This document shows, piece by piece, positions 5,694 through 63,560 of a stretch of DNA of 64,000 bases. Each line of letters opens with the position of its first letter. Positions within the stretch are counted from its first letter, which is position 1. Under the pieces are notes generated by a model, which was not told the origin of the DNA, made no database searches, and saw nothing but the letters and a program-made list of their open reading frames with translations. A program made the position numbers and the translations under genes. Source of the stretch: a bacterium (GTDB lineage Bacteria > Patescibacteriota > Minisyncoccia > Phycocordibacterales > UBA9973); assembly GCA_037130655.1 (NCBI GenBank), contig JBAXSP010000001.1, forward strand, positions 101,830-165,829, written 5' to 3'.

Positions 5694-6470
5694 ATGAGTA
5701 ACATTTCAGTTGACCTTATCAAGGAATTACGAGATCAAACCGGTGTCGCAGTAATGCAATGCCGTAAAGCTTTGGAAGAAGCTGGTGGTGATATCGAAAA
5801 AGCTCGAATCATCTTGAGTAAACAATCAAGTGCTGCAGCTGAGAAGAAAGCTGACCGTGCACTTGGTGATGGACTCGTTGTGGTGAAGCAAGACGGAAAC
5901 AAAGCAGTGATGCTTGTCCTCTTCTGCGAAACTGACTTCGTTGCAAAAAACGAAGAATTTATTGCAGCCGCAAACAAGCTTGGAGAAATCGCTCTCGCTG
6001 AAGGTGAAGATGCTATGCGCGCACAATCAGGAGAAATCATCAATCCATTGATTCAAAAAATTGGTGAAAATATGCAAGTTGGTTCTGTATACACATTCGA
6101 CAATGGTACTATCGGTAGCTATGTTCACAATGGACGTAATGCTTCTGTAGTAGTACTCGAAGGTGGTGACGAATCTCTTGCAAAAGATATCGCAATGCAC
6201 ATCAGTGCGATGAAGCCTCACTTCGTAAAGAAAGATGACATTACTGAAGACGACAAAGTCAAAGTAACTGAAGTATTTCAAAAAGAAGTTGATGAATCTG
6301 ACAAACCAGCAGATATGAAAGCAAAAATCCTTGAAGGAAAATTGTCTGCTTATTTCAAAGAAAAAATTCTCTTGGAACAACCGTTCATCAAAGACCCTAA
6401 TATGACTATCGGTCAATTAGCATCAAGTAAAGGTGCAACTGTTGTTCGTTTCGAACAATTTAACTTCTAA
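5694..6470 (+). CDS. tsf: translation elongation factor Ts
   Basis: 258 aa; LRDQTGVAVMQCRKALEEAGGDIEKA UBA-like N-terminus and EF-Ts dimerisation domain; rpsB-tsf synteny. Confidence 0.95.
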   Translation: MSNISVDLIKELRDQTGVAVMQCRKALEEAGGDIEKARIILSKQSSAAAEKKADRALGDGLVVVKQDGNKAVMLVLFCETDFVAKNEEFIAAANKLGEIALAEGEDAMRAQSGEIINPLIQKIGENMQVGSVYTFDNGTIGSYVHNGRNASVVVLEGGDESLAKDIAMHISAMKPHFVKKDDITEDDKVKVTEVFQKEVDESDKPADMKAKILEGKLSAYFKEKILLEQPFIKDPNMTIGQLASSKGATVVRFEQFNF

Positions 6471-7361: not shown

Positions 7362-7461
7362 ACAATTAGTATACCAAATATTATTCACTCGAAGGTATGC
7401 ATATCTATACATAACCGCTCAAAACAAAAAACAACATCAATTGATGTTGTTTTTTGTTTTG

Positions 7462-7534
7462 AGCCGCTTCTCGGACTTGAACCGAGGACCTTCACTTTAC
7501 AAAAGTGTTGCTCTACCAACTGAGCTAAAGCGGC
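7462..7534 (-). tRNA. tRNA-Thr (anticodon TGT)
   Basis: GCCGCTT acceptor, GCTCAGTTGGTAGAGC D-arm, anticodon loop TTTGTAA, GGTTCAAGTCC T-arm; manual cloverleaf fold. Confidence 0.8.
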
Positions 7535-7660
7535 TGATTTTTCCTACAAAGAAAAATCATGTCGGAAGAAATTCTTAGGCGAAGCCTGATAATTTTTCCG
7601 ACTAATTTTCTTACAGGGAAATACTTTTTGGTCAAAATTTTCCGACCAGAATTTTTCCTA
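7535..7660 (-). promoter_or_regulatory. conserved tRNA-Thr upstream leader/promoter element (shared with the tRNA-Thr at 63391..63463)
   Basis: 37 nt identical plus ~20 nt identical flanking a hairpin with compensatory changes, duplicated at 63464-63545; repeated TTTTCCGAC motifs. Confidence 0.4.
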
Positions 7661-11678: not shown

Positions 11679-12386
11679 ATGGAACAAAACAAAACACAAG
11701 ACAATTTGTCTAAAACTATCGTGCTCGTCGTACTTATTATTCTTGCGCTGGTTATTTATAAGTCACCCAAGCTTCCACCAAAAGTCACCAAGCCAGCTGA
11801 TACTCAAACACAAACAGCAAACACGGCAGACATTTTGAAATTGCGAAGTGATGACTATGCAAACGGAATCACTGCAAGTGCACAAGTTACTATTATCGAA
11901 TATTCTGATTTGGAATGTCCTTTCTGCCGACTCTTCCACGGAACATTGATGCAAGCAATGCAAAAATATCCAGGAAAAATCGTATGGGTATACAGAAATT
12001 ATCCAATTGAAAGTTTGCACAAAAAAACAAGATTTGAAACCAATGCACTAGAATGTATCGGCGGAATCGGAGGGAATACTGCTTACTGGAATGCGTTGAA
12101 TGAGATCATGGCAACAACAAAATCAAATGACGGACTTGATTTGAGCACTATTCCAACTATTGCAAAAAATGCTGGTGTGTCACAAACAGATTTCGAGCAA
12201 TGTATGACAAACAAAACCTATGACGCAAAAATAATGGCACAAGTAGCTGAAGTACAAGCGCTTGGTGTACAAGGTACTCCATTCTCTATCGTCATCAATA
12301 ATGCCACTGGCGAAACAACTCCAATAATGGGATATCAAAAGTTTGAGAAATTTGATGAGACGCTGCAAAAAATAATTAAGAATTAG
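11679..12386 (+). CDS. DsbA-family thiol:disulfide oxidoreductase (membrane-anchored)
   Basis: 235 aa; N-terminal TM helix; CPFC active site in thioredoxin fold. Confidence 0.8.
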   Translation: MEQNKTQDNLSKTIVLVVLIILALVIYKSPKLPPKVTKPADTQTQTANTADILKLRSDDYANGITASAQVTIIEYSDLECPFCRLFHGTLMQAMQKYPGKIVWVYRNYPIESLHKKTRFETNALECIGGIGGNTAYWNALNEIMATTKSNDGLDLSTIPTIAKNAGVSQTDFEQCMTNKTYDAKIMAQVAEVQALGVQGTPFSIVINNATGETTPIMGYQKFEKFDETLQKIIKN

Positions 12387-12412
12387 TAATTAATAATTAC
12401 GAATGAAAAACA

Positions 12413-12450
12413 AAAAGAGCGGAACCCGAAGGGTTCCGCTCTTTTTGTTT
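12413..12450. terminator. bidirectional intrinsic terminator (AGAGCGGAACCCGAAGGGTTCCGCTCT)
   Basis: 12-bp perfect stem, GAA loop, flanked by A-run and T-run. Confidence 0.7.
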
Positions 12451-12646
12451 ATTAAAATATATTAGTCGAAGTATCAAAATTTAAGAACAAAATTTTGATA
12501 TTGTGACGTCACTCAGACGCTGTGAATGTATGAACATTCACACGCTCCCTCTTACAGAGGCTGTACACCTTTTGGATACTTTACTTCGCTATGCTCGTAA
12601 AGATATCACAAAAGCTTCTTCATCTTAATCCCATTAAGATGAAGCG

Positions 12647-22850: not shown

Positions 22851-25800
22851 TTATAATTTAGAAATAAATTCAACCAAATTATCCATTTCTTTACTATGAT
22901 CATGCCACCAACGAGTTGACCATATTCTATAGACAACAAAACCCATTTCTTTAAGTTCTTTTTGTCTATACATATCATGTGCATAGGCTTCATTTGAAGA
23001 ATGGTATGTTTTACCGTCGCACTCAATTGCTATCTTTTTTTCATTGATATTCAGAACAAAATCAATTCTAAAACCACCTATTTTATGTTGAATAGAAATT
23101 TGATCTTTAGAAAATTTTTCAGAAAGCATTTCATAAACCTCTTGCTCAAAAGGAGATTCTGTTAAACCTTCTTCTAATACAAAATTAGCTCTTGGTGCCT
23201 CATGACTATTTTGTTTAAGACTTTCAAGTATAGACTGAACTCGAGTTATATCACCATTACTAACAGCTTCAGAATAAGCTAAATATGCATAAAAAATACC
23301 TTTCTTGTTATTACCAGTAGATTCTATAATTTGCTCATATCCATGATATTTTTCCTTAGGAACCGAAGTGCAAACGTATACTTTATATTTTGCACGTGTA
23401 ATTAGAACATTAAGAAGCTTATATCCTTTTGTATAATTAACTGGACCAAAACGCTCGAGAAATCTACCATCATCTCCTTTTCCGTAGGTAGTAGAGATTA
23501 TAATTATATCCATTTCATCTCCTTGAATATTTTCAAGATTTTTTATAAAAAGACCTGATTCTTTTATTCCATCTAATATTTTAGCAAAATCTTCATTTTC
23601 AGAACTGAACTTATCCAATGCATCTCTAATTTCATTTCTTTGTTTTAAGTTAAAAGTAGCAATACCTACGGAAGGATAGGTACCGTCTGGTTTAACATGA
23701 ATATCCTCACTTATAATTCTTAAAACTTCTTTTACTTCACTCTCATTAATATTATTTTTATAATGCCCATTAACTTGAACAAGCTCAATAGGAGAATAAT
23801 CATTCATAGCAGGAAACGGAACTAAATTTCCTCCATAAAAAGCTGCGTTTGAAAAATCTATAAGAGCAGGGTGTTTGGAACGATAGTGATAGTCTAAGTA
23901 TGAATAACTTTTTTTAGGTAAATTTTCTGCATAATCGAGAAGTGATTCACTTGATGCAAGTTGTCGCTCCATTTCCTCTTCAGATATTTCCATATCATCA
24001 ATATCTTGATATATAGCATCCGTTGAAACTCCTCCTGTTTCAAAAAAACTTGAAGGTGGCATTTGGTGCTTATCACCTGCAATAACTTTGTATTTTCCGC
24101 GAATGAATGAGGTAAAAACATCTTCTATTCTCAACTGACTTGCTTCATCAAAAATTACCACGTCAAACAGACCTTGTTTTAAAGGAAGCACAGAATCAGA
24201 AGCAACCGGATTTGTAAGTATCACAGGAAAAATGCTAGTGAAAAGATCAAATTCTGATTGAATAATTCTACGTAATGGATTAGCTCTGTCCGAGACTTTA
24301 TTTTTTCTTAAATTATAAAGAAGATTAAAACCATTCTTTCTTTCATAAAGATTTTTTTGATTCTTTGCATTGTCGTCCCAATCACTACGAATTTTCAGTT
24401 TTTGCTCTTTTTTCAATTGATCATAAAGATCTGTGAGTGTTTTAAGCTCTTCATCACTAGTATTCAATGAGCCAATTTTAGATTCATGATTAATCAAAGC
24501 TCCATACAGATACCATGCAGTGTACGCACCTAACCAGTCATCTACACCATATTGACAGAGTGATGAAATTAAAGATTTTTGATTTGAATTCAATTTGTTT
24601 AAATAAAACATCCAACGATAAAATGGTTCATATTCATGAATTTCTTTTTTCAAACTATCAAAAAATACAATCTCCTTTTCAATGTAATCCTTATACTCTG
24701 ATATTCCTTTTATAGAAACAAAATTAATTGGCTTTCTTTTAGTAAATACATCGTAATCATTTATTAAGATATTTTCTTCATCTACAAAATATTTATTTAA
24801 TTTCAAAATATTTTTTATTTTTTCTATAATTAAATTCGACTCCTCGTGTAGTAAATTTAATTTTTCTAAAACTGAAGATATGTTTGTTGTTTCATCAAAA
24901 TTAATCAAACCAATTAATGATTCTTTTTCAGAATCAATTATATTATTATATGTATCAATCTTTAATAAACATGATGTCTTTTTTTCATTTAAAATCTTTT
25001 TTCTTTTGTTAAAAAAAGCTTCAAAAATATCAATATTTTTGATTTTGAGTAATTCTTTTTCTGAATATTTAGTATAATCCTGATAATCATTTAATGTAGA
25101 TATACTCTCTTGTAGTAAATTTTTTATCTTTTGAAAAAAATCTATTCCATTTTTTAAATTTTGTTGATCTGTAATAAAGTACTTACCAATAGAAATATCT
25201 TCTTCTGATAGATTGTTTATTTTTTCAAGTAATCCAGATAATATTTTTTCCTTATTCTTTACAAATTTAGATAAGTTATCACTTGATAATCTTGAATATT
25301 CTACTTTAAATAAGTTTTTATTTATTTCTTTTAGTGCGATAAGATTATTTATATTAAAAGCTTTATATAAATTGGTAGCATTGAAAATTATATCTTTTAA
25401 ATTCAAAAATTCCGTTTCTTCAAACGAATATTTCTCATAATCTAATTGTTCTTCAATTTTAATATAATCATGTTTTCTGCTATTTTGCAGAAAATCTCCA
25501 ATTGTTTCTTTCCAATTCTTACCTACTACTTTTTTAAAAAGTTCTGTATGTTTTTGATTAAAAATATCTCTTAGTCTAAGAAATTTTTTATATTTTAAAT
25601 CAAAATCATTTGAATTGTAGATGTTCCTAGATAGGTTTTCTGCTCGTAGCCTAGCTTTCTTTACAACCTCATTTCTATCTTTATTTACGTCATCTATAAT
25701 TACAATATACTGATCCAACCCAACATCTTTTAAATTCCTATATATTACTTCTAATGCTGTCTTTTTTTCACAAACAACTAGACACCTGCCACCATTTTCC

Positions 25801-26801
25801 AAAGTGTTAGTTATTATTGCTGTTAAAGCCTGACTTTTTCCGGTACCTGGCGGCCCTTGGATAAGTTTTATCTCTGTATCAGTAAAAGAATTTATTAACT
25901 CCTCTTTACTTGGGTCAGTTTTAACAGAACTGACTGTGGAAGTTTGAAAACTTTCAATAACAAGTTTATTATTTTGAAATTCTTCAAGTTTCTTTAGAAG
26001 TTCTTCATTACAGTGAATAATAGATTCTTTTCTAGATTTATATATACCAAAAACAGCTGACCATTGAATCCAAACATTATCTGTTGCCAAAGAATCAAGC
26101 TTCTCTTTACCCGGACAAGGTTCTAACTTAATACTCAATTTACTATTCTCAGAATTAACATTTAACTGAGATAAAATATTATTACAAATATCAATGAGCT
26201 CCTTTTCATTTATTAAATTATCTTCTAAAAGAGATTCGGATAATTGATCGAGATTTATTTGAGCATCACTAGCAACGTGACTTCTCAAAAGTTCATTTAG
26301 TACAATTGGAGAATTTTCATCACGAGTGATGATCCAAGAATTTGTCTTATTGGCCGATTTTTGTATATCTAAATTCCAAATGAGTAGAGGTGCTTTGATT
26401 ACCTTGGTTGGATCACTAGTATCACGTCGAATTAAAATAGGATACCCAATACCGAAGTTTTTTATACCGAACTCAAGAAATTGATCTTCGTTCTCATAAA
26501 CTATGTTATTTAACTTTCTTGATAAAAGAAAAAGGGAATTTTTTTGATTTTCTCCTAATTTAGATATATCAATATTGTCAAAATTAATTTCAAAAGAGAG
26601 CCTTTCTTCACTTAACAATCTTTGTAAAAAATTTAGTGAAGAATCAGGAGATATGGCATCAAATGCACTCAAATCAAGCCGTGAAGCAAATCGCCCAGGT
26701 AGCGCATTGAGATGGATACCTCGACGGTTCCCTACCTTAAGCTTGTTTAACAAACCATTAATAAACTCCTTATTAAAATTGATTTGAGAAACTTCATTCA
26801 T
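22851..26801 (-). CDS. Upf1-like SF1 helicase with DUF4011-like N-terminus and C-terminal DUF559/Vsr-like endonuclease domain (Hhe-like single-gene defence candidate)
   Basis: 1316 aa. Motif I LIQGPPGTGKSQ, motif II VIFDEASQ, III AGDKHQMPP, V IQGDEMDIIIIST, VI NVLITRAK; C-terminal IAIECDGKTYH...YRIWSTRWW matches the DUF559 ExDG..H pattern. Markedly more AT-rich and N/K/I-rich than neighbouring core genes. Confidence 0.8.
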   Translation of the reverse strand: MNEVSQINFNKEFINGLLNKLKVGNRRGIHLNALPGRFASRLDLSAFDAISPDSSLNFLQRLLSEERLSFEINFDNIDISKLGENQKNSLFLLSRKLNNIVYENEDQFLEFGIKNFGIGYPILIRRDTSDPTKVIKAPLLIWNLDIQKSANKTNSWIITRDENSPIVLNELLRSHVASDAQINLDQLSESLLEDNLINEKELIDICNNILSQLNVNSENSKLSIKLEPCPGKEKLDSLATDNVWIQWSAVFGIYKSRKESIIHCNEELLKKLEEFQNNKLVIESFQTSTVSSVKTDPSKEELINSFTDTEIKLIQGPPGTGKSQALTAIITNTLENGGRCLVVCEKKTALEVIYRNLKDVGLDQYIVIIDDVNKDRNEVVKKARLRAENLSRNIYNSNDFDLKYKKFLRLRDIFNQKHTELFKKVVGKNWKETIGDFLQNSRKHDYIKIEEQLDYEKYSFEETEFLNLKDIIFNATNLYKAFNINNLIALKEINKNLFKVEYSRLSSDNLSKFVKNKEKILSGLLEKINNLSEEDISIGKYFITDQQNLKNGIDFFQKIKNLLQESISTLNDYQDYTKYSEKELLKIKNIDIFEAFFNKRKKILNEKKTSCLLKIDTYNNIIDSEKESLIGLINFDETTNISSVLEKLNLLHEESNLIIEKIKNILKLNKYFVDEENILINDYDVFTKRKPINFVSIKGISEYKDYIEKEIVFFDSLKKEIHEYEPFYRWMFYLNKLNSNQKSLISSLCQYGVDDWLGAYTAWYLYGALINHESKIGSLNTSDEELKTLTDLYDQLKKEQKLKIRSDWDDNAKNQKNLYERKNGFNLLYNLRKNKVSDRANPLRRIIQSEFDLFTSIFPVILTNPVASDSVLPLKQGLFDVVIFDEASQLRIEDVFTSFIRGKYKVIAGDKHQMPPSSFFETGGVSTDAIYQDIDDMEISEEEMERQLASSESLLDYAENLPKKSYSYLDYHYRSKHPALIDFSNAAFYGGNLVPFPAMNDYSPIELVQVNGHYKNNINESEVKEVLRIISEDIHVKPDGTYPSVGIATFNLKQRNEIRDALDKFSSENEDFAKILDGIKESGLFIKNLENIQGDEMDIIIISTTYGKGDDGRFLERFGPVNYTKGYKLLNVLITRAKYKVYVCTSVPKEKYHGYEQIIESTGNNKKGIFYAYLAYSEAVSNGDITRVQSILESLKQNSHEAPRANFVLEEGLTESPFEQEVYEMLSEKFSKDQISIQHKIGGFRIDFVLNINEKKIAIECDGKTYHSSNEAYAHDMYRQKELKEMGFVVYRIWSTRWWHDHSKEMDNLVEFISKL

Positions 26802-28058: not shown

Positions 28059-28170
28059 TAATGACTAGTGACTAATGACCAATGACTAATTTAATCAAAC
28101 AAAATAAAAGAAACTTGCCTTCGGCAAGTTTCTTTTATTGGTCACTAGTCATTAGTAATTGGTCATTACT
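28059..28170. repeat. palindromic intergenic element copy 1: heptamer-repeat arm - GC hairpin - inverted arm
   Basis: ATGACTAGTGACTAATGACCAATGACTAAT ... AAAGAAACTTGCCTTCGGCAAGTTTCTTT ... TGGTCACTAGTCATTAGTAATTGGTCATTAC; right arm overlaps the rpsP stop codon. Confidence 0.75.
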
Positions 28171-28462: not shown

Positions 28463-28548
28463 ATGGAGAGATAATAACAGAATAACCTCAAAAACGCAAG
28501 GTAGGTCAAGCTACTAGCGTCTAGCTCCTAGCAACTAGCTTAAATTCA

Positions 28549-28573
28549 TGGGCGATTGGCGAAGCCAATCGCC
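28549..28573. promoter_or_regulatory. perfect 10-bp-stem hairpin (GGGCGATTGG-CGAAG-CCAATCGCCC) in the divergent rpsP/rnr leader region
   Basis: Perfect inverted repeat with a 5-nt CGAAG loop; adjacent CTAGC direct repeats at 28510-28545. Confidence 0.3.
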
Positions 28574-28644
28574 CGGTATTTTGTGTTCCTTATACTTATA
28601 CTAAATCCTTATACTACTGTGCTTTTTATGTTATATTTATCTAT

Positions 28645-35208: not shown

Positions 35209-35305
35209 TTTAATGACCAATGACTAATGACCAGTACTTTCGAAAAGAACGAAGACAATGTCTTCGTTCTTTATTAGTCATTCGTCATTAGTAATTAGTC
35301 ATTAC
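35209..35305. repeat. palindromic intergenic element copy 2
   Basis: TAATGACCAATGACTAATGACCAG ... GAACGAAGACAATGTCTTCGTTC ... TTAGTCATTCGTCATTAGTAATTAGTCATTAC; between smc and rnc, right arm abuts the rnc stop. Confidence 0.75.
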
Positions 35306-36001
35306 TTAGTCGTTCCACTCTTTGACTACCAGCGCATTAGTCGCCGCAGCCTGTTCAGCTTCTTGTTTTGACTTCCCTTTTCCGCGAGCAATTTCTTCCT
35401 CTCCGAAGAATATCGCAATCGTAAAATGTTTGTCATGGTCTGGGCCGTTTTCAGAAATTACTTTATAGAGTGGTGTCGTTTTGTAAATCTCCTGAGCTTT
35501 TTCTTGCACCAAAGATTTTGCATCACGCCACAATTTCTTGCTAACGATTTCATCAAGTCTCGGCATCAAAGTGTCTTCGACAAATTTCTTTGCTGTATCA
35601 TATCCTTGATCCAAATACACAGCACCCAAAAATGCTTCGTAGGTATTCGCCAAAATATATGAACGAGCCTTGCCAGTATCTTTTGATTCACCTTTTGAGA
35701 GGAGCAAGTATTCGTTCATTCCGATTTCACTCGCAACTTCAGAAATAATAATTGCGTTCACGAGCGCTGAACGATATGCAGTCAATTCTCCTTCATTGTT
35801 TCCTGGATATGCTTTGTAGAGGAAATCAGTTGTGATCAGTTCAAGTACCGCATCACCCAAAAATTCCAAACGTTCATTGTGACCATTTTTAGTACCACCA
35901 TTTTCATTGATATATGAACGGTGAGTAAAAGATTGTGCAAGGAGCGATTTATCAGAGAATACAATCCCTGTTTTATTTTCAAATTCTGTAAAATTTATCA
36001 T
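35306..36001 (-). CDS. rnc: ribonuclease III
   Basis: 231 aa; ERLEFLGDAVLEL RNase III signature, C-terminal dsRBD. Confidence 0.9.
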   Translation of the reverse strand: MINFTEFENKTGIVFSDKSLLAQSFTHRSYINENGGTKNGHNERLEFLGDAVLELITTDFLYKAYPGNNEGELTAYRSALVNAIIISEVASEIGMNEYLLLSKGESKDTGKARSYILANTYEAFLGAVYLDQGYDTAKKFVEDTLMPRLDEIVSKKLWRDAKSLVQEKAQEIYKTTPLYKVISENGPDHDKHFTIAIFFGEEEIARGKGKSKQEAEQAAATNALVVKEWND

Positions 36002-40512: not shown

Positions 40513-40707
40513 ATGGAAAACAACAATTTGTACAACATGATGCACCAATTGACTCAAGAACAAAAGTCACTATGGCGTCTCTCAAATCAATATCAAACTG
40601 ATGCTTCAGGAAATCCAGAACTAGTAACATTCTGGGCGAACCTCGCAAAAGAAAAAGAGCGTCATATTGCAGATCTAAAAGAAATGATTAAAGCTGAACT
40701 AAAATAA
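40513..40707 (+). CDS. small hypothetical protein (64 aa, helical)
   Basis: ORF immediately after thrS; stop codon lies in the left arm of repeat copy 3. Confidence 0.35.
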   Translation: MENNNLYNMMHQLTQEQKSLWRLSNQYQTDASGNPELVTFWANLAKEKERHIADLKEMIKAELK

Positions 40708-40820
40708 TGACCAGTTACTAATGACCAATGGCTAATATTCAAAAAGAGCGAAACCCTTCGGGTTCCGCTCTTTTTATTCTGTATTTTTACTAGTCATTAG
40801 TCATTGGTAATTAGTCATTG
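40705..40820. repeat. palindromic intergenic element copy 3
   Basis: TAATGACCAGTTACTAATGACCAATGGCTAAT ... AGAGCGAAACCCTTCGGGTTCCGCTCT ... CTAGTCATTAGTCATTGGTAATTAGTCATTGC. Confidence 0.75.
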
Positions 40821-41020
40821 CATTGTTGCATTTATTTGGCAAAGTGCTATATTCCTATAGTACTTTTACAGAGTCGTACGTAAGACTTTAGAAAAGCTAT
40901 GTTCTTTGACTTGATGCTCTGCCTCTTTTTTATTAACCATAACGGGATAATTGAGGGAGAAATCAAAACAAGAGGTATTGTGAACGGAGCACTGCTTATC
41001 GTAAAAACCATTCGTGATGA

Positions 41021-41041
41021 GAACTGAAACATCTAAGTACC
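41021..41041 (+). other. 23S rRNA-derived fragment (GAACTGAAACATCTAAGTACC) inside a ~500-bp non-coding region
   Basis: 21-nt identity to the universally conserved 23S domain I segment GGAACUGAAACAUCUAAGUACC; flanking ~40 nt show weaker 23S-like similarity; no rRNA gene continues. Confidence 0.5.
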
Positions 41042-41169
41042 ATCCAAAAGGCGTATGGGTCACAAAAAAAACTTCTTACAATGATTGAAAAAAGTAAGGA
41101 TTAAAATCCCTCTCCATATAAAATACACGGAGACAATGATTTTTCCTTCTAACCAAAAACTCAATCAAA

Positions 41170-41197
41170 AAACCACGGTTCACAACCGTGGTTTTTA
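41170..41197. terminator. bidirectional terminator (AACCACGGTT-CACA-AACCGTGGTT)
   Basis: 10-bp perfect stem flanked by A6 and T5 runs. Confidence 0.65.
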
Positions 41198-41337
41198 AAT
41201 TTCTACAACCTAAGATTTCAGTAAAATGTTTCAGATGCGAGGCGTCGAGGAAGAAAAATACGAGATGTACTGATGGTACATTGAGTGTTTTTGTGACGAT
41301 GACAACGAAGCAGATGAGGTATTTTAGTGGAATCTTT

Positions 41338-46483: not shown

Positions 46484-47614
46484 TTATCGAATAATTGACC
46501 CGAATTCTTTGACTGTTTCTATTTCAAGTTTTTTGTGCAAAGTGTTCACTTCTTCGTCGGTCATAGTGTGGTCGAGAGAGCGATAGGTGATGCGATATGC
46601 ATAACTTTTCTTCCCTTCGCCAAACTTGGCAGCGTTTTCATATTCATCAATCAATGCCATTTCTTCAGCCATATCACCGATCACATCACGAACCAAATCA
46701 AAATAATTGTTTGGTTGGAAAGTGTTTTCTACGATGAATGAGATATCACGTACAATCGGCGGATACTTACTTACTTCTTTGAAGGTTTGACCGAGTACCA
46801 ATTGTTTTTTGACACGTTCATCGTCTGACCAAAGGAGACGAATATCTGGAAGTTCCATTGATAAAATTGCGAGACGCTCAAGACCGAAACCGAATGCCCA
46901 ACCGTTGTAACCTTCGATACCCATTTTTGCAAGGACAGATGATTTGATCATTCCTGCACCAAGAATTTCTACCCACTCACCTTTCACCTTCACTTCAATT
47001 TGTGTTGATGGATCAGTGTATGGAAATGTATCGTCGAGGAATTGGTATTCAGTTTCCGGACCAAAGACTGTTTCAACAATTTCAGACAACACACGCTTCA
47101 ACTCATCGAGCGATAACATGCCTTCAGTATTTGGAATCAATTTCCATCCATCGATTTGATGAAAGACATTCATGTGACGACGATCAATTTCATCTTTGCG
47201 ATATACTTTACCGAAACAAAGCGCACCAAGATGTTCACCGCGAGCAGCTCGCTCTTTTATTTCAGGATGATTGAAATAGTAATACCAAGAAACGGTATTG
47301 TGTGTGCGAAGAATATTTTGCGCGTCAGCGTAGTAGGTATCAGATGTTGAACGAGCGACGTGATTTGCTGGGAAATCGAACAGGTCAAACGTAATCGCTG
47401 ATGGAACAATTTCTGGAATTTCAATCACATCAAGTCCTGCAAGTGATGACACTCCTTGCACACGCTCAACGATTTCATGAAGTGGACTACCTGGTGTACG
47501 AGCAAGATCTGGCATCGCCAAATAACGCTTCATACGCAAAGCTTCTGCGTCGGTACGACTTTCGAGTTGTTTTAATAATTCATCTTGTTCGGTTGTGTCT
47601 ATAGATATGTTCAT
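46484..47614 (-). CDS. pheS: phenylalanyl-tRNA synthetase alpha-type catalytic chain with C-terminal FDX-ACB anticodon-binding domain
   Basis: 376 aa; class II core ending GFGLERLAILSM...; extra ~95 aa YPPIVRDISFIV...YRITYRS resembles the FDX-ACB domain normally at the C-terminus of PheT or mitochondrial PheRS. Confidence 0.85.
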   Translation of the reverse strand: MNISIDTTEQDELLKQLESRTDAEALRMKRYLAMPDLARTPGSPLHEIVERVQGVSSLAGLDVIEIPEIVPSAITFDLFDFPANHVARSTSDTYYADAQNILRTHNTVSWYYYFNHPEIKERAARGEHLGALCFGKVYRKDEIDRRHMNVFHQIDGWKLIPNTEGMLSLDELKRVLSEIVETVFGPETEYQFLDDTFPYTDPSTQIEVKVKGEWVEILGAGMIKSSVLAKMGIEGYNGWAFGFGLERLAILSMELPDIRLLWSDDERVKKQLVLGQTFKEVSKYPPIVRDISFIVENTFQPNNYFDLVRDVIGDMAEEMALIDEYENAAKFGEGKKSYAYRITYRSLDHTMTDEEVNTLHKKLEIETVKEFGSIIR

Positions 47615-47667
47615 AAAGTTTTTAAAGTTATAAAGTTTATAAAGTATTTTTTAAAAGTTATTAGAGA

Positions 47668-48015
47668 CTAAGTGAGTGTTTTAATAAAACCGGATAACAA
47701 TTTAGATATTTCTAATGTTAAATTATATGTTTTCTCAAAATCTTTCTGGTTAATATATTTTAACTCAAGAGCCATATCTAACATTGACCTAACTTCTCCA
47801 GCAGAACCTTTAGCAATGAAGAGAAAATTTTTTAACTCTTTATTTGTTCTTCGTTCGAATCCTTCGGCAATATTGTTCATAATCGAAATCGAGGCTCTTT
47901 CAATTTGATTTTTAAAACTAAAGTCTTTAGATGTTTTAAATATAGAATAGATAGCCAAAGTCAATTCTTTTCCTTTCTGCCAAGCTATTATATCTTCAAA
48001 CTTCTCTATTTTCAT
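47668..48015 (-). CDS. four-helix-bundle protein (23S rRNA intervening-sequence protein family)
   Basis: 115 aa; AWQKGKEL...IMNNIAEGFERRTNKE...AKGSAGEVRSMLDMA typical of TIGR02436. Confidence 0.7.
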   Translation of the reverse strand: MKIEKFEDIIAWQKGKELTLAIYSIFKTSKDFSFKNQIERASISIMNNIAEGFERRTNKELKNFLFIAKGSAGEVRSMLDMALELKYINQKDFEKTYNLTLEISKLLSGFIKTLT

Positions 48016-48016
48016 A

Positions 48017-48997
48017 TTACTTTAAGAACTTTAAAAACTTTATTAACTTTCTACTCCACGGTGATGGGACTTTTTTGCCACTTCGAGAAATCGTACATTT
48101 GACCGGGCATTTCATAATGCCTTTTTCTTTTCGCATTTCTTGTTCACAATTTTCGCACAGCAAAAAGTGACGATGACAGCCCATGACTTCACAGTTCACA
48201 AATCGTTCGTTCAATCCGTCGCATTTTTCACAATGAGCAACGACTTTGTGTTTTGGGTCATCAGTATAAAATCCCATCATCACACGTTTATCAAACACAT
48301 ACAATTTGCCGACGAAGTCTTCGTTCGGATATTTTTCCATATATGACACGATACCGTTGTCGAGTTGATACACATCAGTAAATCCTTGCGTAATCAAATA
48401 ACCTGATGCTTTTTCACAACGCACTCCGCCAGTACAAACTGTCAGCACTGTTTTGTCTTTCAAGTGTTTGATACTTTCGATAAATTTCGGCAAGTCACGG
48501 AAGTTGTCGAGTGGTGGACATACTGAACCTTCAAAATGTCCGACGCGGTGTTCGTATGCATTGCGCATATCAACAATATAAAATTCTTTGCCATCCTTAA
48601 TCCATTGATGTAGTTCTTCTGGTTTCAAATGAATACCAGTTGTCACATTCGGATCGACATCACACACACCGAGACCAAGGGTCACGATTTCTGGACGAAC
48701 TTTGACTGATAATTTTGGAAATGAATTTCCATCACCAACACTACGTTTGATGTTGGTATTTGCAAATCGTGGATCTGCGAGATAATTGTTCAAATATTCG
48801 GCGATGGCTTCTTTGGTGCCTTCGAGTGTGGCATTGATACCTTCAGAGGCGATGATTGTGCGCCCTTTGAGCCCCAATTTCTGACACAAAGCAAATTGCT
48901 CATCACGCAAAGCTTGCGGGTCTTTTATGTGGACGTATTTATAAAATAGGATTACTTCGTATTCTTGTTGCATAATATTATAAGAACATATTACCAC
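48017..48997 (-). CDS. trhO: rhodanese-domain tRNA U34 hydroxylase-like protein (YceA/TrhO, UPF0176)
   Basis: 326 aa; N-terminal alpha/beta domain, rhodanese CTGGVRCEKASG, C-terminal Cys-rich tail. Confidence 0.8.
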   Translation of the reverse strand: MVICSYNIMQQEYEVILFYKYVHIKDPQALRDEQFALCQKLGLKGRTIIASEGINATLEGTKEAIAEYLNNYLADPRFANTNIKRSVGDGNSFPKLSVKVRPEIVTLGLGVCDVDPNVTTGIHLKPEELHQWIKDGKEFYIVDMRNAYEHRVGHFEGSVCPPLDNFRDLPKFIESIKHLKDKTVLTVCTGGVRCEKASGYLITQGFTDVYQLDNGIVSYMEKYPNEDFVGKLYVFDKRVMMGFYTDDPKHKVVAHCEKCDGLNERFVNCEVMGCHRHFLLCENCEQEMRKEKGIMKCPVKCTISRSGKKVPSPWSRKLIKFLKFLK

Positions 48998-53927: not shown

Positions 53928-54037
53928 TAATGACTAATTACTAGTGACCAATGACTAATTTAATAAAACACAAACTATTCAAAAAAGAGGCGAAAACCGT
54001 AGGTTTTCGCCTCTTTTTATTAGACACTGGTCATTAC
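53928..54037. repeat. palindromic intergenic element copy 4 (right arm shortened)
   Basis: AATAATGACTAATTACTAGTGACCAATGACTAAT ... AAGAGGCGAAAACCGTAGGTTTTCGCCTCTT ... ATTAGACACTGGTCATTAC. Confidence 0.7.
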
Positions 54038-54148
54038 TTCGAACAGCTTCCACAAGAACATCCGCACCTTCCTTACAGGAACAGTACACCTTTTGGATAT
54101 ATTTCTTCGTAAAACTCGAAATCTATCTCAAAAGGTCTTGCGTCTGTA

Positions 54149-58533: not shown

Positions 58534-59106
58534 ATGAAAAACGCAATTATTGTTCATGGAATGCCGAACAAAGAAGAGTTTGAAAAGAATGGCATATTCA
58601 AACATTGGCTTCCGTGGATTAAAACCGAATTAGAAACAAAAGGAGTCGGTGTAACAATTCCAGAAATGCCGACACCGTATGCTCCGATATATGAAGCGTG
58701 GAAAGAAGTGTTTGAACAATTCCCTCTCACTGAAGAAACAATATTGATTGGACATAGTTATGGAGCAGGATTTCTTTTGAGATACTTATCTGAGAACAAC
58801 GTCTCTGTTGGCAAGGTTGCGTTGGTTGCGCCATGGATTGATCCTGATGGATACTTAGCAACACTATCGCTTCCGAATTCATTTGATTTCACCCCCGACA
58901 ATAATCTTGTAGAAAAAACAAAAGGAGTAACGGTGTTTTGTTCAGAAGACGATGATGAATATATTTTGGAAAGTGTCAGACAAATCAAAGCAACATACAC
59001 TGGTTTTGATTACAAAGAATTCACCGATCGTGGACATTTCACCACTGAACCTGGATATGATAATGATACGTTTCCGGAACTACTCCGAGTAATTACCAAT
59101 GACTAA
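58534..59106 (+). CDS. serine hydrolase of the YdeN/RBBP9 alpha/beta-hydrolase family
   Basis: 190 aa; GHSYGAG nucleophile elbow, catalytic Asp/His candidates; last codons (ITND-TAA) encoded by repeat copy 5 arm. Confidence 0.75.
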   Translation: MKNAIIVHGMPNKEEFEKNGIFKHWLPWIKTELETKGVGVTIPEMPTPYAPIYEAWKEVFEQFPLTEETILIGHSYGAGFLLRYLSENNVSVGKVALVAPWIDPDGYLATLSLPNSFDFTPDNNLVEKTKGVTVFCSEDDDEYILESVRQIKATYTGFDYKEFTDRGHFTTEPGYDNDTFPELLRVITND

Positions 59107-59198
59107 TGACCAAGGACTAATAAAAATAATAAAATAAAAGATGCGGACCGAAGGTCCGCATCTTTTATTAGTCACTAGTAATTGGTCACTGGTCATTA
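59091..59198. repeat. palindromic intergenic element copy 5
   Basis: AATTACCAATGACTAATGACCAAGGACTAAT ... AAGATGCGGACCGAAGGTCCGCATCTT ... TAGTCACTAGTAATTGGTCACTGGTCATTAT; between convergent hydrolase and pyrG. Confidence 0.75.
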
Positions 59199-59203
59199 TT
59201 TTT

Positions 59204-60862
59204 TTATTTCTTTTTTCTGTGTTCCGTAGACGCTTTGATGAAAGCAGAGAATACTGGATGTGGAGCAAGTGGTCGTCCTTTGAATTCTGGATGAAATTGT
59301 ACGCCAATCATAAAAGGATGAATACTTGTCGGCAACTCGGCAATTTCACAAAGTGACCCATCGGGAGATTTTCCAGAGAATATAAGTCCTGCTTTTTCGA
59401 GTTGTTCTACATAGTGTGGATTGACTTCGAATCGATGTCGGTGACGTTCTGAAATAGTTGTTTGCTTGTAGGCATTGTATGCAAGTGTTCCCTTTTTCAA
59501 AACTGCTTCATATGCACCGAGTCGCATTGAGCCACCATACCGATTTTCATCCATGAGCGATTTCTGATGTTCCATAATATCAATAACAAGATGCTTTGAT
59601 TTTGGATCAACTTCACGAGTATGTGCATCTTTCCATCCAAGCACATTGCGTGCGTATTCGATGACCATAAGTTGCATTCCATAACAAATACCGAAATATG
59701 GAATATTATTTTTGCGACAATATTCAATCACTTTCAATTTGCCGTCGACACCACGAGAACCAAATCCTCCTGGCACAAGCACCCCGTCGTAATCACTAAG
59801 CTTTTTTAATTTCTTTGCATCCTTTTCAAAATCAAGCGCGTTGACCCATTCGAGCACTGGACGTTTCTTTTGTGCATAACAAGAATATTTGAGTGATTCA
59901 ATCACTGACAAATATGAATCTGACAACGTGAAGTCTCCCGTATCAAAATATTTTCCGATGATGGCGATACGAACTTCGTCCTTCAATCCTTTTGTACTTT
60001 TGACAAACTTTTGCCATTCTTTTGGTTGTTTGTTTTCGGTTGGAATTTTGACGCCAAGTGTATTCAAGATGCGATCACCAAATAATTCTTTTTCAAAGTT
60101 GAGTGGAATGTCATAGACACTGTCTACATCTGGTGCAGAAATAACATTATCTTTTGGTACGTTACAAAAGAGTGCGATTTTTTCTTTGCGAACATCATCA
60201 AGTGGTCGCTCCGCGCGACAAAGAAGAAAATCAGGAAAAATACCAGCCGAGTTCAATGTACGTACGGCGTATTGCGTTGGCTTGGTTTTCATTTCACCGA
60301 CTTTTGATGGAATCGGTAAATATGAGACCATTACTGTTGCGACATCATGTGGAAGTTGTGTTTTCATCATACGAAGTCCTTCAAGGAAAAGCATACTTTG
60401 ATATTCACCAACCGTTCCACCAATTTCAATAATCGTGAAATCAGCTTTTGCATTATGACTTGCCTTCTTGATTCGCTCAATCATTTCCATCGGCACATGC
60501 GGAACCACTTCGACACATTTGCCTTTATAATGCATGGCGCGCTCTTTTTCAATCACCGACAGATAGACACGACCCGTTGTCATATAGTTGATCTTTGTAA
60601 TATCGATATCCAAAAATCGTTCGTAGTTGCCGATGTCTTGATCTGTCTCATCACCATCATCAGTCACAAACACTTCTCCGTGTTCTGTCGGATTCATCGT
60701 ACCCGCATCGACATTGATATACGGATCAATTTTAAGTGCGGTGACTCGAAACCCTTTGTCTTTCAAAATGCGACCTATTGATGCAGCTGCAATTCCTTTT
60801 CCAACGGAAGACATTACACCTCCAACGACGAAGATGTATTTTGTAAGTGGTTCTTTCGGCAT
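59204..60862 (-). CDS. pyrG: CTP synthase
   Basis: 552 aa; N-terminal synthetase domain (VVGGVMSSVGKG) and C-terminal glutamine amidotransferase (GICYGMQ, HPEF). Confidence 0.95.
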   Translation of the reverse strand: MPKEPLTKYIFVVGGVMSSVGKGIAAASIGRILKDKGFRVTALKIDPYINVDAGTMNPTEHGEVFVTDDGDETDQDIGNYERFLDIDITKINYMTTGRVYLSVIEKERAMHYKGKCVEVVPHVPMEMIERIKKASHNAKADFTIIEIGGTVGEYQSMLFLEGLRMMKTQLPHDVATVMVSYLPIPSKVGEMKTKPTQYAVRTLNSAGIFPDFLLCRAERPLDDVRKEKIALFCNVPKDNVISAPDVDSVYDIPLNFEKELFGDRILNTLGVKIPTENKQPKEWQKFVKSTKGLKDEVRIAIIGKYFDTGDFTLSDSYLSVIESLKYSCYAQKKRPVLEWVNALDFEKDAKKLKKLSDYDGVLVPGGFGSRGVDGKLKVIEYCRKNNIPYFGICYGMQLMVIEYARNVLGWKDAHTREVDPKSKHLVIDIMEHQKSLMDENRYGGSMRLGAYEAVLKKGTLAYNAYKQTTISERHRHRFEVNPHYVEQLEKAGLIFSGKSPDGSLCEIAELPTSIHPFMIGVQFHPEFKGRPLAPHPVFSAFIKASTEHRKKK

Positions 60863-62508: not shown

Positions 62509-63396
62509 TTATACCTTCTTTAATGACTCTATCAAACCTTCGATTTCCCCATCTTCGAGAATTGCTCCTACATTTGAAGATTCATAATTGCTTCGTAAAT
62601 CTTTGACCAATTTATATGGATGCAATACATAGTTACGAATTTGATTTCCCCATTCAATATCAGTATTTTTGGCAGTGTGCATACTTTCTACCAAATCTTT
62701 GTGTTCGTCTTCGGCTTTTTTGAATAATTTGCCACGCAACAATTCCATCGCTTTTTCACGATTGGCTTCTTGACTTCGTTCTTCACGAGACGCAGTTGTG
62801 ATACCCGTCGGCTTGTGTGTAATGCGTACAGCAGTTTCTCGTTTGTTCACATTCTGACCTCCAGGACCACCTGCTTTGGTAAAATCAACTTCTACATCTC
62901 TTTCATCAAGTTCTGGCATTGCATGTTTTTCGATTTTTGGAATTACTTCAACTAAGACAAAACTAGTACTGCGTTTTCCTTTTGCGTTGAACGGACTATT
63001 GCGAACAAGTCGGTGTACACCACTTTCGTGTTTCAAACTTCCGTACACATTCTTGCCGGTAATTTCGAGTGTGATATTTTTGAAACCTTTTTGATCATTT
63101 TCACTTTTAGATAAGATAGTTGAAGAAAAATTATTCCGTGCAAAATACTTCTCATACATTTCATACAACATCCGCGCAAAATCTTCTGCGTCGTCCCCGC
63201 CCGCACCAGAGATAATCGACATAATAGCTCCACCGCGATCAAAAGCACCGAATCCTTCTTTCTTGTCTTTCAATTCTTGTAATTCTTTGATGAGTGACTG
63301 TGCCTGATTTTTGTCATTCCAAAAATCTGCACCTGCCATGGCGTTTTCGATTTCTGTAATACGTAGATTGATTTCGTCTGAATTCATTTGAGCCAT
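62509..63396 (-). CDS. prfB: peptide chain release factor 2
   Basis: SPF tripeptide (RNSPFNAKG) and GGQ (GGPGGQNVN) motifs. ORF track ORF extends to 63432 through the tRNA; start MAQ at 63396 overlaps the tRNA by 6 nt, so MNSDEI at 63387 may be the true start. No programmed frameshift needed. Confidence 0.85.
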
Positions 63397-63463
63397 TGTC
63401 GGGAATCGAACCCGAGACCTCATTCTTACCATGAATGCGCTCTACCGACTGAGCTACAACGGC
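63391..63463 (-). tRNA. tRNA-Thr (anticodon GGT)
   Basis: Manual fold: acceptor GCCGTTG/CAATGGC, D-arm GCTC-AGTCGGTA-GAGC, anticodon stem CATTC/GAATG with loop ATGGTAA, T-arm TCGGG-TTCGATT-CCCGA. Confidence 0.75.
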
Positions 63464-63560
63464 TGATTTTTCCTACAAAGAAAAATCATGTCGGAAGAAT
63501 TTTTATGGCAAAGCCATATAAAATTTTCCGACTAATTTTCCTCTCATAAATTCGCGTCGA
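63464..63560 (-). promoter_or_regulatory. second copy of the conserved tRNA-Thr upstream leader element
   Basis: CTGATTTTTCCTACAAAGAAAAATCATGTCGGAAGAA identical to 7535-7571; hairpin TATGGCAAAGCCATA vs TTAGGCGAAGCCTGA; shared AATTTTCCGACTAATTTTC. Confidence 0.4.

Follow-up and report, generated by a model that had tools for sequence, protein, structure and literature searches.

Inverted AATGACY heptamer arrays around terminator-like hairpins in a Paceibacteria-like bacterium: a species-specific arrangement of a widespread repeat

A 64-kb stretch of contig JBAXSP010000001.1 from a bacterium of the Patescibacteria (the window, with positions counted from its first letter) contains five modules of about 100-115 bp, each built from three to four AATGACY-type heptamers, a hairpin with an A-tract, a GC stem and a T-tract, and a second set of heptamers in inverted orientation. 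Our favored reading, held with modest confidence, is that these modules are species-specific two-way terminators flanked by a propagating heptamer repeat that is recognized by its sequence. In sequence the arms belong to a family already known: AATGACY, cyclically permuted, is the GAC(C/T)AAT unit reported at recO of Nostoc 7120, and a genome scan found tandem AATGACY arrays in more than 12 phyla, so that a first-pass annotation of the window, which recognized no described element family, is superseded on this point. New are the placement of the arrays as inverted brackets on terminators, and their youth.

The heptamer is now seen far beyond cyanobacteria, in a minimal-genome bacterium of the candidate phyla radiation, in GC-rich genomes and in phage contigs, and its occurrence as inverted pairs bracketing terminators ties it to transcript 3' ends. 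Its presence in one species and absence from sisters at 87% nucleotide identity amount to a natural experiment that could reveal which gene reads or spreads it. Terminator hairpins in this genus are also shuffled between sites.

Terminator-like hairpins between inverted arms

All five modules occur at the coordinates given in the first-pass annotation, and inspection of the sequence confirmed each. A two-unit probe (AATGACYAATGAC, at most two mismatches) yields 30 matches in the window, against 5.4 +/- 2.0 (maximum 12) in dinucleotide shuffles, and 28 of these matches fall within the modules. Period-7 arrays were reported by the program TRF at 28059-28090, 28137-28168, 35212-35233 and 35273-35304 (modules 1 and 2) and at 40705-40736, 40791-40819, 53928-53959 and 59090-59121 (modules 3 to 5), with 3.1-4.6 head-to-tail heptamer copies per arm. 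Left arms, right arms and hairpins emerged from a repeat-family search of the window as three separate families; modules 1 and 5 were recovered again in Logan contigs assembled separately. Rfam, searched with gathering thresholds across the entire window and with permissive ones around module 3, has no family that matches the modules.

Within a module the order is arm, AAT, hairpin, ATT and inverted arm. Arm units are AATGACY, AATTACY or AGTGACY; the three to four units per arm previously annotated hold for most arms, the right arm of copy 4 having two. The modules are asymmetric, in that one arm of copies 1, 2, 4 and 5 abuts the hairpin (AAT-AAAAGA...) and the opposite arm is set off by an A/T-rich spacer of 10-24 nt, which is downstream as seen from the minus-strand gene, whose U-tract it lengthens. 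Upper stems, loops and spacers are non-homologous between copies, the sole shared spacer segment being that of copies 1 and 4, whose left arm plus spacer are 89% identical over 46 nt. T...A flanks are found at nine of the ten arm ends, a feature also expected from periodic continuation of the heptamer. The genome segment has no solitary array; each of its ten arrays belongs to a pair around a terminator.

The module centers have an A-tract, a stem of 13-17 bp with 5-7 G-C pairs, a loop of 3-4 nt and a T-tract, and in all five copies the stem starts with AAAAGA or AAAAAGA. Loops as read off the sequence are TTCG, ACAATGT, TTCG, CGTAG and GAAG in copies 1 to 5; computed folds closed one extra pair around most of them, leaving 3-nt loops. 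The stems had been described as tetraloop stems of 10-13 bp with perfect self-complementarity, a description to be amended in that they are longer, include A-T pairs, mostly carry 3-nt loops and, in copy 3, contain one A.C mismatch. A GC stem-loop with an adjoining U-tract is present for both strands, so the bidirectional terminator previously proposed is matched by full two-way intrinsic anatomy, and on this canonical anatomy the module centers would be ordinary two-way Rho-independent terminators. A simple scan found some 16-17 hairpins of the A-tract/stem/T-tract type in the window, five with arms and about 11 without.

One group of these hairpins, the GAGCGGAACC family (AAAGAGCGG[A/G]ACC...), was found in this genus only and at non-orthologous sites: at 12404-12454 (12.4 kb) and 40741-40775 (module 3) of the window, and in sister contigs at L125 1871-1908 and L127 6269-6302, the sites in the sisters being the rnc-smc spacer and the pyrG 3' end. 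It was absent from 1.1 Mb of other Paceibacteria relatives. Terminator hairpins themselves therefore appear to have been copied between sites, and the arms are a second, species-specific layer on top of them. An arm-less terminator at 41168-41196 has kept its orthologue in the sister, with two compensated pair changes. Compensatory change between the module stems, as previously claimed, is not demonstrated, for these are ordinary terminators out of a genus-specific family, and homology between copies cannot be established. A decayed relative annotated near 12390-12480 was confirmed at 12371..12454, where an AATAATT-type degenerate array (12371-12399) follows a dsbA-like stop and precedes the hairpin at 12404-12454; its segment 12402-12454 is homologous, in inverted orientation, to the interior of copy 3 (87% complementary over 53 nt), and no clear second arm was found within 12371-12454.

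Left arms match the reverse complement of right arms with an identity of 0.77 within copies and 0.79-0.82 between copies, and no covariation between the arms of a copy, hence no compensatory upkeep of their pairing, was detected. Since pairing within a copy is no better than between copies, it is the arm sequence that is conserved and not the helix. A single long hairpin is nonetheless the computed fold of each whole module, at -38 to -51 kcal/mol (z = -9 to -11). Stop codons (TAA, TGA or TAG) in all three frames, previously attributed to every arm, are present in seven of the ten. The unit has no evident self-complementarity, on which ground we read the near arm as unstructured.

The modules are here described in turn, with neighboring genes named by Pfam and hairpins given without strand. 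Module 1, between rpsP and khpA, has its left arm at 28060..28087 (+; AATGACT AGTGACT AATGACC AATGACT), a T-rich spacer at 28088-28102, on the downstream side for the minus-strand rpsP, a 17-pair hairpin at 28103..28139 (AATAAAAGAAACTTGCC TTC GGCAAGTTTCTTTTATT) between an A-tract and a T-tract, and its right arm at 28140..28167 (-; reverse complement AATGACC AATTACT AATGACT AGTGACC). Module 2, between rnc and an SMC-like gene, comprises a three-unit left arm at 35212..35232 (+; AATGACC AATGACT AATGACC), a hairpin at 35244..35272 (AAAGAACGAAGAC AAT GTCTTCGTTCTTT) and a right arm at 35276..35303 (-; reverse complement AATGACT AATTACT AATGACG AATGACT). In module 3, between an open reading frame (ORF) of 64 aa and a conserved non-coding stretch, the left arm at 40706..40733 (+; AATGACC AGTTACT AATGACC AATGGCT) precedes the hairpin at 40741..40775 (AAAAAGAGCGAAACCC TTC GGGTTCCGCTCTTTTT), a member of the GAGCGGAACC family, and the right arm at 40792..40819 (-; reverse complement AATGACT AATTACC AATGACT AATGACT). 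Module 4, between DoxX and DoxX-like genes, has a left arm at 53929..53956 (+; AATGACT AATTACT AGTGACC AATGACT), a hairpin at 53982..54018 (AAAAAGAGGCGAAAACC GTA GGTTTTCGCCTCTTTTT) and a short right arm of two units at 54022..54035 (-; AGACACT GGTCATT). Module 5, where a Ser_hydrolase gene faces pyrG, has a left arm at 59091..59118 (+; AATTACC AATGACT AATGACC AAGGACT), a hairpin at 59133..59169 (AATAAAAGATGCGGACC GAA GGTCCGCATCTTTTATT) and a right arm at 59170..59197 (-; reverse complement AATGACC AGTGACC AATTACT AGTGACT).

The hairpins thus sit downstream of the stop codons of rpsP, rnc, the 64-aa ORF, DoxX, Ser_hydrolase and pyrG, and the arm closer to the gene, of 21-28 nt, begins 0-6 nt past the ORF stop or overlaps the ORF end. 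Several genes had been said to terminate inside an arm. This is true of the Ser_hydrolase ORF, which translates two units of the module 5 left arm before its stop at 59104-59106; the rpsP stop (28166-28168) overlaps the last 2 nt of the module 1 right arm and that of the 64-aa ORF (40705-40707) the first 2 nt of the module 3 left arm, and the stops of rnc (35306-35308) and pyrG (59204-59206) lie 2 nt and 6 nt outside the right arms of modules 2 and 5. Neighboring genes are co-directional at four modules and convergent at one (module 5), so placement at convergent gene ends, a check suggested in the first-pass annotation, did not prove general. The best named homologues of the encoded PyrG and RNase III are in Candidatus Nomurabacteria, Pacebacteria and Paceibacterota, and the host is, to judge by sequence, a Paceibacteria-like bacterium of the candidate phyla radiation (Patescibacteria).

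Distribution of the arms in sisters, other phyla and phages

The sister species share 87% nucleotide identity with the window and 59-63% identity at four-fold degenerate sites, with amino acid identities of 93-94% for Rnc, 96% for PyrG and 95% for KhpA. Their terminators at four orthologous sites are bare, with no heptamers. The sister pyrG 3' end has AAAAAAAGAGCGGGACC ATAC TGGTCCCGCTCTTTTTT, plus an additional 100-aa gene; the rnc-smc spacer, in five contigs, has AAAAGAGCGGAACCC AAAG GGTTCCGCTCTTTT; downstream of the 64-aa ORF stands TAA-T-AAAAACCCTGC AATT GCAGGGTTTTT, with homology restarting exactly at the end of the module 3 right arm; and the rpsP-khpA spacer has AAAAAAATTCCC GAAA GGGAATTTTTTT, without a far arm, the khpA leader past this hairpin being identical in window and sister. 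These terminators are of the same hairpin style as those of the window and directly follow stop codons. The search for the same arms in related genomes, another check suggested earlier, was accordingly negative at all four sites. Sister contigs totalling about 35 kb (23 kb non-redundant) contained no tandem units, nor did 54 kb of relatives at 70-76% PyrG identity, and 1.05 Mb representing 80 more distant Paceibacteria loci contained one three-unit array in total. By this comparison, the modules are specific to this species among the relatives sampled.

Because the arms are absent from the sisters, their gain after the species split would be the simplest reading of the direction of change. Between module and sister hairpins there is no relation at sites 1 and 3, and at sites 2 and 5 the resemblance is only that of shared-family members. 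Site 3 clearly favors replacement by a whole cassette; the generalization that hairpins were always replaced, and never decorated in place, is weakened by the neutral divergence to the sisters. With arms absent from the sisters and hairpins shuffled, the module behaves as a propagated cassette and not as an ancient conserved signal. Of the mobile or propagated cassette originally proposed, the discrete, species-specific unit stands, given four bare sister sites; its likeness to miniature inverted-repeat transposable elements (MITEs) or repetitive extragenic palindromic (REP) sequences does not, since the interiors are non-homologous, no clean target-site duplication is seen and the scanned ORFs of the window include no transposase.

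Beyond this lineage, the arm signature AATGACYAATTACYAATGAC occurs at at least 118 loci in a species-representative genome collection, where about four chance matches would be expected on an estimate that assumes uniform base composition. The matches include Nostocales, Oscillatoriales, Bacteroidota, Ignavibacteria, Planctomycetota and Chloroflexota, as well as Saccharibacteria and other Patescibacteria, Margulisiibacteriota, Methylomirabilota, Omnitrophota, Kiritimatiellia and Parabeggiatoa, and loci of Nostoc, Anabaena, Calothrix and Tolypothrix were picked up by the window's own arm signature. A slightly broader pattern retrieved 94 viral contigs, some of 60-68% GC and some with portal and terminase genes. 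Among the matches listed, 1,474 units give the consensus A-A-T-(G 77% / T 20%)-A-C-(C 53% / T 41%), arrays range from 3 to 24 units, and convergent inverted pairs around a central hairpin occur at six of the 118 genome loci (Phycisphaera and Anatilimnocola of the Planctomycetota, Ignavibacteria, Methylomirabilota, Omnitrophota and Bacteroidales). Divergent pairs that fold into a hairpin by themselves are found more often in the viral set. Where the flanking genes are co-directional, the AAUGACY-sense orientation predominates by about 2:1 (89 vs 46).

When ORFs within 1.5 kb of arrays were clustered over 212 loci, no recurrent neighbor such as a transposase or writer gene was found, the clusters being only phage portal, terminase and unrelated families; genes between array pairs 150-1500 nt apart are heterogeneous. 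In one viral, phage-like contig of 60% GC (L153), paired arrays of 4-6 heptamers each occur at 673-759 and 2726-2820, directly after a terminase-like ORF; the members of a pair are in opposite orientation, 11-17 nt apart, and would form long A/U-rich hairpins.

Proposed mechanism and competing explanations

In the mechanism we envisage, the central hairpin and its U-tract would end transcription of the upstream gene, and also of the convergent gene where there is one. The near arm, with the stops and spacing described, could release the ribosome in any frame before the hairpin is reached, and might also hold an unstructured spacer ahead of it. On read-through, the far arm would pair with the near arm to form the computed hairpin of about 110 nt, which could act as a backstop, as a 3' protective structure or as an RNase III-type substrate. 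The arms would be read by something that recognizes the 7-nt register, either a single-strand nucleic-acid-binding protein or a repeat-spreading machinery; we suppose them to be kept by such a reader because conservation is of sequence only, the unit is identical across phyla, and the arrays are present in phages. Finally, the arms would have arisen after the split from the sisters, at sites that already had bare terminators, and in some cases at least a different hairpin from the genus-specific pool may have arrived with them.

Several observations weigh against this reading. Two-way termination does not account for the presence of both arms, since the genes on either side are co-directional at four of the five modules. 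Arrays in other phyla are mostly solitary among the matches listed, and stable hairpins are not enriched beside arrays elsewhere (median about -6 kcal/mol on either side), so the coupling with terminators may have come about by accident in this lineage. Neither the window nor the surroundings of arrays yielded a candidate gene for a reader or writer. The modules are clustered at 28-59 kb of the window, the genome being covered over 73 kb, and no further module was found in the 9 kb past the window's left edge. Raw divergence at four-fold sites is 0.4, at which the hairpins at sites 2 and 5 could be diverged orthologues; because of this neutral divergence, in-situ decoration and whole-cassette replacement are not cleanly separable. 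Termination, read-through pairing and protein binding at the modules are, moreover, all deduced from sequence.

A bolder proposition, which we think improbable but consequential, is that AATGACY arrays are the footprint of an unrecognized system spread by horizontal transfer, a protein or ribonucleoprotein able to read a 7-nt register and perhaps to write it. Such a system would have entered many bacterial phyla together with their phages and, as a recent invader of this species, would have installed inverted arrays around terminator hairpins. If so, comparison with the array-free sisters would point to the gene or genes responsible, and would address a 35-year-old question, namely what the heptamer repeats first described in cyanobacteria are.

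About as improbable is an account in which the arms are simply binding arrays for a single-strand nucleic-acid-binding protein with a 7-nt footprint, for example one with a cold-shock domain, that tunes termination and antitermination or mRNA 3'-end stability. Conservation of arm sequence and not of pairing is what such arrays would show, and the preferred sense orientation between co-directional genes and the arrays in contigs bearing phage portal and terminase genes are in keeping with it. In Bacillus subtilis, each CspB monomer binds one heptanucleotide, for which the consensus is GTCTTTG/T, C being strongly preferred at position 3; GTCATTG fits this consensus at six of seven positions, which is a lead and not a test, and CCAAT/ATTGG Y-box cores lie within AATGACC units. 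Cold-shock proteins are discussed in the literature as antiterminators, and were suggested, with S1 and CsrA-type proteins, as binders of TAACTGA repeats (MacGregor 2015, PMC4679880). However, the CspB-like consensus is on the RGTCATT strand, the arm that goes untranscribed in a terminated transcript; its key C is lost in the common GTAATT variant; and ATTGG and CCAAT were bound weakly in the same CspB study. A motif scan found no cold-shock-domain gene in the window, and cold-shock proteins are near-universal whereas the arrays are patchy even among sisters.

We consider it similarly improbable that the arms are a functionless by-product, in which a slippage-prone array beside a hairpin was copied across it by template switching (quasi-palindrome correction). 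Both sides have arms even where one direction alone is transcribed, and other heptamer arrays are similarly placed in relatives: TAGGCGM x3 (L130), AATTCTT/AATTACG, and AATTTTC-type inverted arms (L295). Template switching, however, predicts the best match within a copy, and the observed value is 0.77 vs about 0.80 between copies. Drift does not explain why one and the same heptamer, its G/T and C/T variants included, turns up in more than 12 phyla and in contigs of 60-68% GC. Every array of the genome segment, moreover, is paired around a terminator.

About as unlikely, in our estimation, is a classical MITE, whose terminal inverted repeats (the arms) would serve a transposase encoded elsewhere, with insertion at TA and the terminator carried incidentally. 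The size of about 110 bp, inverted ends that are 77% complementary within a copy, intergenic location, differences in presence and absence between sister species, T...A at nine of ten arm ends and the 89% identity of copies 1 and 4 over 46 nt would speak for such an element. Yet periodic continuation of the repeat gives the same T...A flanks, interiors are non-homologous among copies, and the sister sites hold a different terminator where flank+TA+flank would be expected. No transposase was detected among the scanned ORFs of the window, no gene recurs beside arrays at the 212 loci, and arrays elsewhere, among the matches listed, reach 24 units and are mostly solitary. Two further candidates were rejected: a REPIN or REP sequence, since the arms are tandem heptamers, the unit shows no evident self-complementarity and the window yielded no Y1 transposase; and an integron attC site, since the arm ends are AATGACY/RGTCATT, not RYYYAAC ... 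GTTRRRY, and the window has no integrase. A chance, compositional or assembly artefact, with nothing but the AT-richness of the genome in its favor, has negligible probability, being refuted by the excess of probe matches, by the separate Logan assemblies of modules 1 and 5, and by arms shorter than the sequencing reads.

Other repeats and comparison with known systems

Additional elements of the window and its relatives were noted beside the modules. A 115-aa gene for a 23S-rRNA-intervening-sequence (four-helix-bundle) protein (PF05635, E = 1e-32) at 47668-48015(-) is bracketed by inverted 9-mer arrays (ATAAAGTTT; 47609-48050), which makes it a counterpart of the heptamer modules that carries a gene; the rpsP-khpA spacers of L291 and L299 have 9-mer arrays of a similar kind, and L306 contains two further PF05635 genes. 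At 1900-2000 of another Paceibacteria contig (L295), the AATTTTC-type inverted arms surround an AT-rich center between two genes, so inverted heptamer arms can also be built from units of another sequence. In-frame heptamer arrays, (AATTACG)n or (AATTAAG)n on the coding strand, occur in trmD genes of other Paceibacteria (L230 6269-6296, L234 8244-8271, L259 240-274 and L287 8119-8146) and are translated as 7-residue protein repeats (NYELRIKN or NYELRITN in L230 and L234). A period-7 AGCTACT array (x4.6; 28509-28540) in the divergent rpsP / RNase R promoter region adjoins a strong hairpin at 28549-28575. In many Paceibacteria, the rpsP-khpA spacers (L226-L305) contain a conserved hairpin motif (GCAGTTTGTAGTCGATACACTGC) between promoter and khpA that may be an uncharacterized leader RNA.

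The stretch 40830-41200 is non-coding, conserved with sister L127 and without an Rfam match; it has a promoter-like TTGCAT-N17-TATATT directly behind module 3, ends at the terminator 41168-41196 and may be a small RNA gene. It contains a motif, GAACTGAAACATCTAAGTACC, that we presume to be 23S-rRNA-like. A repeat of about 95 nt (TTCAGATGCGAGGCGTCGAGGAAGAAAAAT...GTACTGAT...) is present once in the window (41215-41310) and twice in L127 (about 200-320 and 6150-6250), one of the latter copies inside the sister's rnc-smc spacer; the genus thus has a second intergenic element that is mobile. The segments 12551-12600 and 54072-54121 have an element of about 50 nt in common (...CTTACAG..GTACACCTTTTGGATA..., 76% identity), in each case between a gene stop (rpoD, DoxX) and the next terminator or module. 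Both tRNA-Thr genes (7461-7534 and 63390-63463, minus strand) contain the start of an 88-nt direct repeat (86% identity; 7510-7597 and 63439-63526), which runs on for about 60 nt upstream of the gene. The 1316-aa gene at 22851-26801, in a 26% GC island, encodes a helicase (AAA_11/AAA_12) fused to a DUF559/MTES_1575 nuclease and is probably a horizontally acquired defense or nuclease gene.

Among known systems, bidirectional intrinsic terminators resemble the module centers, which are the same in style as the arm-less terminators of the window and sisters, but ordinary ones have no conserved inverted repeat arrays on both sides. The small palindromic intergenic repeats that fold as RNA hairpins, including MITEs (Correia/NEMIS, ERIC) and REPINs, are similar in their length of about 100-150 bp, inverted ends, intergenic location, variable presence between close relatives and ability to fold to a long hairpin that could terminate transcription or be processed. 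They differ in that module copies have their arms in common and not the interior, that these arms are tandem heptamers instead of unique inverted repeats or palindromic REP units, and that the modules show no demonstrable target-site duplication and no transposase or RAYT gene in the window.

The TAACTGA heptamer repeats of Beggiatoaceae, Cyanobacteria and Bacteroidetes, with all-frame stops and a patchy distribution (MacGregor 2015, PMC4679880), come closer in several respects: stops in all frames in one orientation, intergenic location, unstructured RNA, a cross-phylum patchiness that suggests horizontal spread, and overlap of ORF ends by at most about two units. Their heptamer is another sequence, however, and they are almost always direct repeats just upstream of start codons, with a proposed translational role and a single inverted set reported.

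Nearest are the short tandemly repeated repetitive (STRR) heptanucleotide sequences of heterocystous cyanobacteria, which have served as fingerprinting targets since 1990; we take the AATGACY unit to be STRR2 (TTGGTCA) of Mazel et al. 1990, and know of no function or binding partner for repeats of this type. A search of the open-access literature with tandem 14-mers of the unit gave no relevant match. In Nostoc 7120, eight GAC(C/T)AAT units precede recO, arrays of at least three units lie at most 30 nt from at least 13 start codons, and a binding protein has been postulated (bioRxiv 10.1101/2022.06.06.494920). The likeness extends to the identical 7-nt unit with the same C/T wobble and to tandem intergenic arrays of at least three units adjoining gene ends. 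The present host, on the other hand, is a Patescibacteria bacterium and not a cyanobacterium, and arrays occur in many phyla, so the original host restriction fails; and whereas the described Nostoc arrays are solitary and at most 30 nt upstream of start codons, here every array is one half of an inverted pair around an intrinsic terminator at a gene 3' end.

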